From the NCBI RefSeq assembly GCF_054482595.1, contig NZ_CM137008.1: DNA of 64,000 bases; one strand, written 5' to 3'. The position numbers and the translations under genes are program-made. Positions 8,549 to 10,461 of this stretch are shown here, one piece after another. Position 1 is the first letter of the stretch. Every line of letters starts with the position of its first letter. The notes under the pieces are model-generated. The model saw nothing but the letters and a program-made list of their open reading frames with translations. It searched no databases and had not been told where the DNA came from.

Positions 8549-8872
8549 ATGTCCCATCAGAAAATTATTCAGGATCTTATCGCATGGATTGACGAGCATA
8601 TTGACCAGCCGCTTAACATTGATGTAGTCGCAAAAAAATCAGGCTATTCAAAGTGGTACTTGCAACGAATGTTCCGCACGGTGACGCATCAGACGCTTGG
8701 CGATTACATTCGCCAACGTCGCCTGTTACTGGCCGCCGTTGAGTTGCGCACCACCGAGCGTCCGATTTTTGATATCGCAATGGACCTGGGTTATGTCTCG
8801 CAGCAGACCTTCTCCCGCGTTTTCCGTCGGCAGTTTGATCGCACTCCCAGCGATTATCGCCACCGCCTGTAA
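8549..8872 (+). CDS. soxS: AraC-family superoxide-response activator SoxS
   Basis: 107-aa ORF, MSHQKIIQDLIAWIDEHI..., two HTH motifs. Confidence 0.97.
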   Translation: MSHQKIIQDLIAWIDEHIDQPLNIDVVAKKSGYSKWYLQRMFRTVTHQTLGDYIRQRRLLLAAVELRTTERPIFDIAMDLGYVSQQTFSRVFRRQFDRTPSDYRHRL

Positions 8873-8874
8873 TT

Positions 8875-10461
8875 TTATTGCCCGCGCGTTAACTCCCGCG
8901 CGGGTAATTGCTCCATCCATTGCATAAACACCTGCGGCGGCATCGCCTTCGCAAAGAACCATCCCTGGCAATAGCGCACGCCGCGTTTGCGCAGCCAGTT
9001 AACCTGCTCCTCAGTTTCGACGCCTTCAGCGATCGTTTTTAACCCCAGGCTGTGCGCCAGCTCGATGATGTGTTCCGCAATCAAATGACTGGTTTTGTGG
9101 GTGGTCAGCGTTTCAACAAACGATTTGTCGATTTTCAAAATATCGACATTCAATGATTTAAGGTTATGCAAGTTAGAGTAGCCAATACCAAAATCATCAA
9201 TTGCCACTTCGTAACCAGCCTGGCGGAAAGCCAGAATAATCGGCGTCATTTTTTCGACATCAAGAAATGCATGCTCAGTCACTTCAAATTTAATTTGCTG
9301 CGGACGCACCGCGTATTGCTCTGTTTTCTGATTGATTCGCGCTATCAACCGTGACGTATGAAAATCGGAGGCCGACAGGTTAATAGAAACATAGCGATCT
9401 GCATGTGTTGCCAGGTAATCGCCCAGATCGCGGAAGACATTATCAATAACATAATCAGTTATCTGTTCTATCATCCCCTCCTTTTCTGCCAGCGGAATAA
9501 ACTCTGCCGGATTCATTATTTGCCCCTGCTCACCAAGCCAACGTAACAACGCTTCAGCGCCGATACATTTTTCTGTTTTGATATCGATTATTGGCTGGTA
9601 ATAAAGACAAAGTTGATGTTTTTCGAGGGCGCGTTGCAATTTACGTTTGGGAGATAAATAGTTTTGTCGAATACGTAGCCAGAGTAATAGCAGAACAAGA
9701 CTCCCCAAAATACCGGCGGGCAACGCAAAAATAAGATGATTATAAAAATGGGTTATAAGACGTTGATATGAAGTCGCAACAATGGCTGCAATTGGGCGTT
9801 TTGTCGAATAAACTGTCGCATATAAATAGCCATTTCTTTGTACGGTTAAATCCTTCAAATGAATCAGCGGAGAAAACGTTGCTGCCGAGGCCTCTTTGCT
9901 TAACGAGAAAAAGGTTTTCGTCACCGTATCATACACACCCCATTGCAATGTCGGATCATCAGACATCACTTCACTCCAGAAGAGAGGGTTGATAACCGCC
10001 ACATAATTTCCCCGCTGCATATAGGTCATTTTATAGCCAGAGAAAAAAGGCGTATCGCGGTAATAATAGATAGAAACGTTAGGTTCACGCTTATAATCGG
10101 CCGGTGCAATCGTATAGCCGTTTACAGGCGCTATCAGCGATGAGCATAAAAAATGGTTATCACGGGCATAGATCAATTCATTAATATAAAGATAGCCACG
10201 AATAATATTCAACATTCGCTTTTGATGGGCTGGAGTGCAAACTTGCCCCTGATAGCGTTCAGCTGCATCGCTCACTAAATCTGCCTGGCGAATGACCAGC
10301 TCGGATTTATCCAGTGCCAGTTGAGCAAAGGTTCGGAGCTGATTATTCACTTCTGATTTTGCCCAAAGGAAGGCAATCCATAGCGAAAGAATGATGGGAA
10401 AGAGAACTAAAAAGATAATGCCCGGCAACGCCAGTAATTGGTGTCGTGCACGATGACTCAT
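8875..10461 (-). CDS. pdeC: c-di-GMP phosphodiesterase with periplasmic CSS domain and C-terminal EAL domain
   Basis: ORF track gives 531 aa from a TTG; the ATG three codons in ([10 protein letters not shown]...) gives 528 aa. EAL-domain motifs are visible in the C-terminal half (…[10 protein letters not shown]…, …DDFGIGYS…). Confidence 0.85.

Follow-up and report, generated by a model that had tools for sequence, protein, structure and literature searches.

A conserved soxS-strand stem-loop inside the end of the convergent pdeC gene as the probable 3'-end signal of the soxS message

The RNA hairpin at positions 8877-8908 (+ strand) of the analysed window, a stretch of DNA of 64,000 nucleotides, is interpreted, with a probability of about 70%, as a stem-loop that defines the soxS mRNA 3' end, backed by Rho, and that is overprinted on the end of the convergent pdeC gene. 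The structure of the hairpin, its strand-specific conservation, its retention after loss of pdeC and one mapped 3' end were demonstrated, and classical intrinsic termination is, we think, at most partial, given that E. coli has only a weak U-tract and Citrobacter has none. The locus as such is an ordinary, previously catalogued tail-to-tail gene overlap. The hairpin within it illustrates, cleanly and on a small scale, how RNA structure can be overprinted on the codons of a protein tail, with codons dictated by the message of the opposite strand, and how such a structure can outlive the gene it occupies.

Gene order and the junction hairpin

The soxS coding sequence (8549-8872, + strand) encodes 107 amino acids with an AraC-type HTH extending to residue 106 and ends with a TAA stop codon at 8870-8872, and the coding sequence of pdeC, formerly yjcC (8875-10461, - strand), encodes 528 amino acids with CSS-motif and EAL domains, its stop codon being the reverse complement of 'tta' at 8875-8877. 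RefSeq annotation places soxR at 7999-8463 on the - strand. The convergence of soxS and pdeC with stop codons only 2 bp apart, as given in the original prediction, was confirmed by direct reading, by the listing of open reading frames, by the RefSeq annotation and by MG1655, where pdeC occupies 4275471..4277057 and soxS 4277060..4277383 and where the spacer (8873-8874, 'tt') is identical. The 2-bp gap is thus already present in the reference annotation and is not new. The window is a piece of E. coli chromosome. Of 5426 complete E. coli genomes, 5424 share this geometry, and positions 8400-9400, which are 100% identical to strain GE3, are present in 5425. Among the 13 annotated convergent pairs of the 64-kb window, rluF-yjbD has a gap of 0 bp, pdeC-soxS one of 2 bp and the others gaps of 34-221 bp, and the 2-bp gap by itself is not exceptional. 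With a spacer of 2 nt it is practically impossible for soxS transcripts to stop before 8875.

The junction was surveyed in 80 Enterobacteriaceae species, represented by one genome each, in most of which a pdeC homologue converges on soxS. The gap is exactly 2 bp in 19 species (Escherichia and Citrobacter) and 1-15 bp in 20, and the two coding sequences overlap in 26, by 16 nt in 15 species (among them Klebsiella, Raoultella and Trabulsiella), by 4 nt in nine, by 13 nt in one and by 14 nt in one; the gap exceeds 50 bp in five species, and pdeC is absent within 2.6 kb of soxS in ten. A close junction, with an overlap or a gap of at most 15 bp, is kept in 65 of the 80 species. The survey thus indicates that the tight tail-to-tail arrangement is ancient and that in nearly all surveyed genomes the 3'-end signal of soxS would have to fall within pdeC.

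The arms of the GC core, CCCGCGCG at 8881-8888 and CGCGCGGG at 8897-8904, enclose an 8-nt loop, TTAACTCC, at 8889-8896, and on the soxS strand the stem is lengthened by A-U, U-A, U-A and G.U pairs (8877-8880/8905-8908) to span 8877-8908. The original prediction had placed a GC-rich hairpin at 8881-8904; the hairpin is there, although the second arm had been drawn to take in C8896, which is unpaired. On the soxS strand a folding energy of -21.6 kcal/mol was calculated (z = -5.05 against dinucleotide shuffles), whereas on the pdeC strand the core alone forms, at -18.7 kcal/mol. The hairpin was still predicted when folded within a 201-nt context, and when all 40-nt windows of the 64 kb, taken on both strands, are ranked, it belongs to the top 0.15%; this rank, together with conservation accompanied by covariation, exceeds chance expectation. 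With eight G-C and four A-U or G.U pairs and a short loop, the stem has the dimensions of an intrinsic terminator (about 5-14 bp, GC-rich). An Rfam search of 7700-11300 gave no match at the junction, SraL/RyjA being the sole family that passed the threshold. A REP element was considered and rejected, the hairpin being single-copy, with one location in each of 5424 genomes, and its sequence being unlike the GCCGGATG-type REP found after soxS in Pseudocitrobacter.

Conservation of the hairpin and overprinting of the PdeC tail

The 52 nt starting at the soxS stop were aligned ungapped for 23 sequences, comprising four Escherichia, two Salmonella, Intestinirhabdus and 16 Citrobacter. The helix occupies a single register across the alignment, in which 85.9% of cells form standard pairs, compared with 33-50% when the partner was slid by 1-3 columns, and RNAalifold, unprompted, predicted a matching helix of nine pairs (8878-8886/8899-8907). 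Changes on both sides were observed at four pairs, among them pair 16-31, which shows the series C-G / U.G / U-A in two related Citrobacter. A count of wobble pairs gave 43 G.U cells, spread over eight pairs, on the soxS strand against three A.C cells, which correspond to wobbles on the pdeC strand. Because the species are related, cell and species counts exceed the number of truly independent changes. No change of the hairpin was seen among the E. coli variants sampled, and in one strain a premature pdeC stop codon just beyond the stem renders it intergenic. Strain NDM6 (89.6% identity) was set aside as a natural variant, since both genes carry scattered indels and frameshift flags, which are probably errors of assembly.

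The hairpin sequence was not found to be conserved beyond the Escherichia-Salmonella-Citrobacter clade, and the Klebsiella pneumoniae type strain ATCC 13883, in which the soxS and pdeC coding sequences overlap by 16 nt, lacks the E. coli hairpin. For the first 60 nt past the soxS stop codon of the 80 Enterobacteriaceae and this window, folding on the soxS strand gave a mean energy of -21.0 kcal/mol, compared with -18.2 kcal/mol on the other strand and -12.4 kcal/mol for interior controls. Outside the clade, then, stable folding past the soxS stop codon persists though the sequence does not.

In two lineages pdeC has been lost and the hairpin beside soxS retained: Salmonella enterica subsp. arizonae, where only about 26 terminal codons of the gene are left, and Intestinirhabdus alba, where soxS is followed by the hairpin, by TTTT and then by yjcB. 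The hairpin has, in these genomes, survived two independent losses of pdeC.

Within pdeC the hairpin is carried by codons 519-527, which lie in about the last ten codons of the gene and in the 23-residue tail (residues 506-528, codons at 8878-8946, - strand) that follows the EAL domain, the Pfam EAL match ending at residue 505 of 528. The tail peptides vary between genera, and yet the tail Pro codon is always CCC, the Gly codon is only GGG or GGA, and another third position is invariant despite replacement of the residue by R, S, H, C or G. Among control four-fold pdeC columns from 18 species, the third base was invariant in none of 64. Selection on the fold of the soxS-strand RNA would set the codon choice of the PdeC tail in this way. 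Because RNA polymerase leaves soxS with no intergenic space before it, the signal that ends and protects the message would be located within the C-terminal PdeC tail, which is variable.

Alternatively, the palindrome might lack any function as RNA, having arisen simply from the codons of the PdeC tail or serving as a site on the DNA that a protein binds. Its location inside a coding sequence, the fair conservation of the residues that border it (P-A and G-Q) and the fact that CG-rich palindromes can occur by chance would agree with such an origin, which is nevertheless considered very improbable, because third codon positions stay fixed in a variable peptide, compensatory changes are present, neither a DNA palindrome nor coding constraint would be expected to give the strong asymmetry between G.U and A.C cells, the hairpin was kept after pdeC deletion in two lineages, and the element is single-copy without an Rfam match. 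The evidence, which is new in this analysis, argues that selection acts on the hairpin as an RNA of the soxS strand.

The mapped soxS 3' end and the mode of termination

A 'primary' soxS 3' terminus with a 44-nt 3' UTR has been published at MG1655 position 4277017 (TRS Supplementary Data 4, Nat Commun 2023, PMC10687069) and was mapped to position 8915 of the window, which places the soxS 3' UTR at 8873-8915 (+ strand), ending ...GGGUAAUUGCUCCA-3'. The source is a single RNAtag-seq data set, for which cultures were grown uninduced in LB and in which soxS is covered at a very low level (PMC10687069). The terminus lies 7 nt past the extended stem and 11 nt past the GC core, for an expected intrinsic-terminator spacing of 7-9 nt past the base of the stem, and in this one low-coverage data set stalling of an exonuclease would fit the position equally well. 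The original prediction that any 3'-end signal of soxS would lie inside pdeC has held up, as the hairpin conserved on the soxS strand is located there and the published terminus falls just beyond it. The Term-seq tables of Adams et al. 2021 contain no 3' end near 8915, their sole soxS entry being at the start codon, a pdeC 3' end was not found in the TRS tables, and a search of one literature library found no paper on a soxS terminator or a soxS 3' UTR. With a mapped transcript overlap of about 41 nt (8875-8915), the soxS transcription unit ends some 41-43 nt into pdeC, and this overlap should be allowed for in experiments on either gene, since C-terminal deletions or tags of pdeC and replacement cassettes of soxS disturb the RNA of the neighbour.

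The tail that follows the stem, UAAUUGCUCC, is poor in U and falls short of the run of about five or more U in eight nucleotides expected of an intrinsic terminator. A U-tail score of 1.56 was obtained, at the 86th percentile of a background with a mean of 0.77 and a 95th percentile of 2.28, and in most Citrobacter the score is about 0.03-0.3 with the stem still conserved. A scan for the simple terminator pattern did not call the hairpin site; because this silence reflects a tail short of U, the label 'canonical terminator' was dropped.

A canonical or bidirectional intrinsic terminator, in which the hairpin alone would end soxS and perhaps also pdeC, with neither Rho nor processing, is accordingly judged unlikely. 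It would be in keeping with the strong GC-rich stem, with a 3' end at the expected distance of 7 nt past the extended stem, with the TTTT that follows the stem in Intestinirhabdus once pdeC is lost, and with the use in E. coli of TTA and CAA, A/T-rich codons that directly follow the stem and add some U on the soxS strand. It is opposed by the tail UAAUUGCUCCA, on which the 7-nt hybrid UGCUCCA would be G/C-rich, by the low U-tail score, which drops nearly to zero in Citrobacter with a conserved stem, and by the negative pattern scan. As to pdeC, the position of the hairpin upstream of the stop codon, the A-rich CAAUAAAAUUAC that follows it and the failure of the wobble pairs on the pdeC strand together mean that the hairpin cannot be the terminator of that gene.

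Ju, Li and Liu reportedly described overlapping or bidirectional terminators of convergent genes in Nat Microbiol in 2019. The junction studied here resembles those pairs in its tail-to-tail genes, its single junction hairpin and its overlapping 3' ends, but differs from a bidirectional terminator in that on the soxS strand U is abundant upstream of the hairpin and scarce downstream of it, the pdeC stop codon comes after the hairpin, and the wobble pairs point to selection on one strand only. A bidirectional terminator was rejected, as UUUUAUU lies upstream on the plus strand and the minus-strand tail is CAAUAAAAUUAC, in place of an A-tract upstream and a U-tract downstream, the hairpin on the pdeC strand ends 3 nt before the stop codon, and the ratio of 43 G.U to three A.C cells denotes selection on the soxS strand only.

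The preferred reading, a 3'-end-defining stem-loop with Rho behind it, can be laid out in steps. Some polymerases may stop at the hairpin, and those that pass it would mostly be stopped by Rho on untranslated, C-rich RNA antisense to pdeC at about 8905-9060; 3' exonucleases would then trim the RNA back to the stem, leaving a mature end at about 8915. The stem-loop would in this manner both end and protect the soxS message, and soxS transcription would normally enter only about 41 nt of pdeC. The candidate Rho entry region (8905-9060, + strand) is proposed from GC skew, which is -0.19 to -0.27 on the soxS strand in 80-nt windows spanning 8820-9059. The read-through RNA would be antisense to pdeC and therefore untranslated, and the C-rich, G-poor stretch that the Rho model calls for beyond the mature end is present here.

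Dar and Sorek are said to have described, in NAR in 2018, stem-loops at the 3' ends of Rho-terminated transcripts. The soxS end shares with such transcripts a stable hairpin without a proper U-tract, a mature end a few nucleotides past the stem and an untranslated C-rich region next to it. It is unlike them in that its stem-loop falls within the codons of a convergent gene, and for soxS the action of Rho and the trimming are inferred.

Antisense overlap and the regulation of pdeC

The pair pdeC-soxS is explicitly named as a convergent excludon of MG1655 in Table 1 of ExcludonFinder (NAR 2025, PMC12288877), where it is one of 165 convergent excludons that recur in 50% or more of 58 MG1655 transcriptomes, and the soxS end at 8915 overlaps pdeC over 8875-8915 in line with that designation. 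For pdeC-soxS the documented feature is transcript overlap and not the mutual exclusion of expression after which the class is named. The original prediction suggested that antisense transcription from soxS might couple superoxide stress to c-di-GMP turnover. In an excludon-type coupling of this sort, strong induction of soxS would send polymerases and antisense RNA into pdeC and lower its expression by collision or by RNase III cleavage of the duplex, linking superoxide stress to c-di-GMP. The excludon call, the 41-nt overlap of the mapped soxS end with pdeC and a U-tract weak enough to leave room for read-through under soxS induction speak for such coupling, as does a paraquat time-course microarray in which yjcC belongs to cluster 12, the genes of which rise in a soxR deletion and not in the wild type. 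Against this, any 3' UTR would fit the excludon definition at a gap of 2 bp, so that the listing is uninformative on regulation, the microarray cluster includes many genes that are controlled by ArcA/Fnr and have no convergent partner, and the conserved hairpin and the C-rich stretch argue that read-through is contained. Coupling of this type is rated as quite unlikely.

The junction could also be read as a stop made leaky by the weak U-tract, in which induction of soxS by about 100-fold would generate read-through and head-on polymerases along the final tens to hundreds of pdeC bases and thereby cut the amount of full-length pdeC mRNA, so that superoxide would raise c-di-GMP in cis and independently of the SoxS protein, and in which the junction would have been kept in 65 of 80 species for that reason. 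If correct, this would constitute a protein-independent link from superoxide stress to biofilm signalling; the odds against it are put as high as those against the excludon-type coupling. An antisense effect of soxS on pdeC is, overall, unlikely to be large.

Regulation in Klebsiella pneumoniae CG43 has the opposite sign to that expected of antisense interference. There, yjcC is inducible by paraquat and its expression falls on deletion of soxRS, indicating positive control (Huang et al. 2013, PMC3720812). The two systems share the same neighbouring genes and the connection of superoxide stress to a c-di-GMP phosphodiesterase, and the positive regulation in CG43 was measured partly with promoter fusions (PMC3720812) and is therefore not antisense interference. 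A paper on PdeC biochemistry does not mention soxS, and a yjcC match in an imipenem study was set aside as irrelevant because it concerns a plasmid gene.

Direct binding of SoxS/MarA to a site in the promoter region of yjcB-pdeC is a simpler candidate link between superoxide stress and pdeC than the antisense overlap. The marbox GCAATAAAAGTCACG in the pdeC-yjcB intergenic region (10703-10717, + strand) is a MarA ChIP-seq site, yjcB has been reported as a SoxS ChIP-exo target, and in the same paraquat microarray study yjcB was assigned to a SoxR-dependent induced cluster. A classical transcription-factor route from SoxS to the yjcB-pdeC locus thus exists.

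The soxS-pdeC locus in other genomes

Comparison of the soxS loci of other genomes with the window identified two in which pdeC has been lost independently, those of S. enterica subsp. arizonae (L006, 3325-3410) and Intestinirhabdus alba (L007, 3325-3700). In both, the only remnant of pdeC adjoining soxS is the terminal piece bearing the hairpin (window 8877-8908, soxS strand), and in I. alba approximately 340 bp separate this piece from yjcB. In the locus of E. coli MS15046 (L083), TTGCTC is changed to TTACCC at the equivalent of window 8909-8914, creating a premature pdeC stop directly after the hairpin; the PdeC of this strain is annotated as 11 residues shorter, and the hairpin is there intergenic.

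The E. coli hairpin was missing after soxS in the Enterobacter loci L029-L032, L037, L038, L042, L061 and L070. These loci display instead a long predicted stem of -19 to -27 kcal/mol, located approximately +20 to +57 past the soxS stop, one arm of which is antisense to the WQQQ codons of the PdeC tail (CUGCUGCUGCCA) and the other to its MPPQ codons (UGCGGCGGCA). This predicted stem may represent another answer to the same problem as the E. coli hairpin.

When complete E. coli genomes were searched with window 8400-9400 as the query, the match in E. coli MS 69-1 (H12, NZ_CP146675.1) was limited to query bases 368-1000, and the gene on the soxS side is annotated there simply as 'AraC family transcriptional regulator'. 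The partial match and the generic annotation together suggest that this strain has undergone a rearrangement or replacement affecting soxR together with the 5' portion of soxS.

Convergent gene ends around soxRS and elsewhere

The small RNA RyjA/SraL (7866-8006, + strand; Rfam RF01408, 153 bits; ryjA in the MG1655 annotation) is convergent with soxR (7999-8463, - strand) and overlaps its last 8 nt, and tail-to-tail overlaps therefore flank soxRS on both sides, with soxS-pdeC on the other. The RyjA/SraL terminator hairpin, found by the terminator scan at 7975-8005, is also a weak Rfam match on the reverse strand, and may thus serve both strands.

A second convergent pair in the window, rluF-yjbD, has a 0-bp gap between its coding sequences (window ~57708; 4459803/4459804 in the record of strain GE3). 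Near-zero tail-to-tail spacing is therefore not peculiar to soxS-pdeC.

The soxS leader and the pdeC-yjcB intergenic region

The Term-seq tables of Adams et al. (2021) place a 3' end with a score of 43001 on the soxS strand, at the middle nucleotide of the start codon of soxS (window 8550, MG1655 4277382). This position implies a short RNA consisting of the soxS 5' leader only, for which premature termination and processing are candidate sources.

The pdeC promoter is divergent from yjcB and shares with it an intergenic region containing an exact match (10703-10717, + strand) to the MarA site sequence taken from a ChIP-seq report for yjcB<>yjcC. SoxS ChIP-exo targets have been reported to include yjcB. 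This gene also belongs to a paraquat cluster that depends on SoxR, and mercury raises its expression more than 30-fold.
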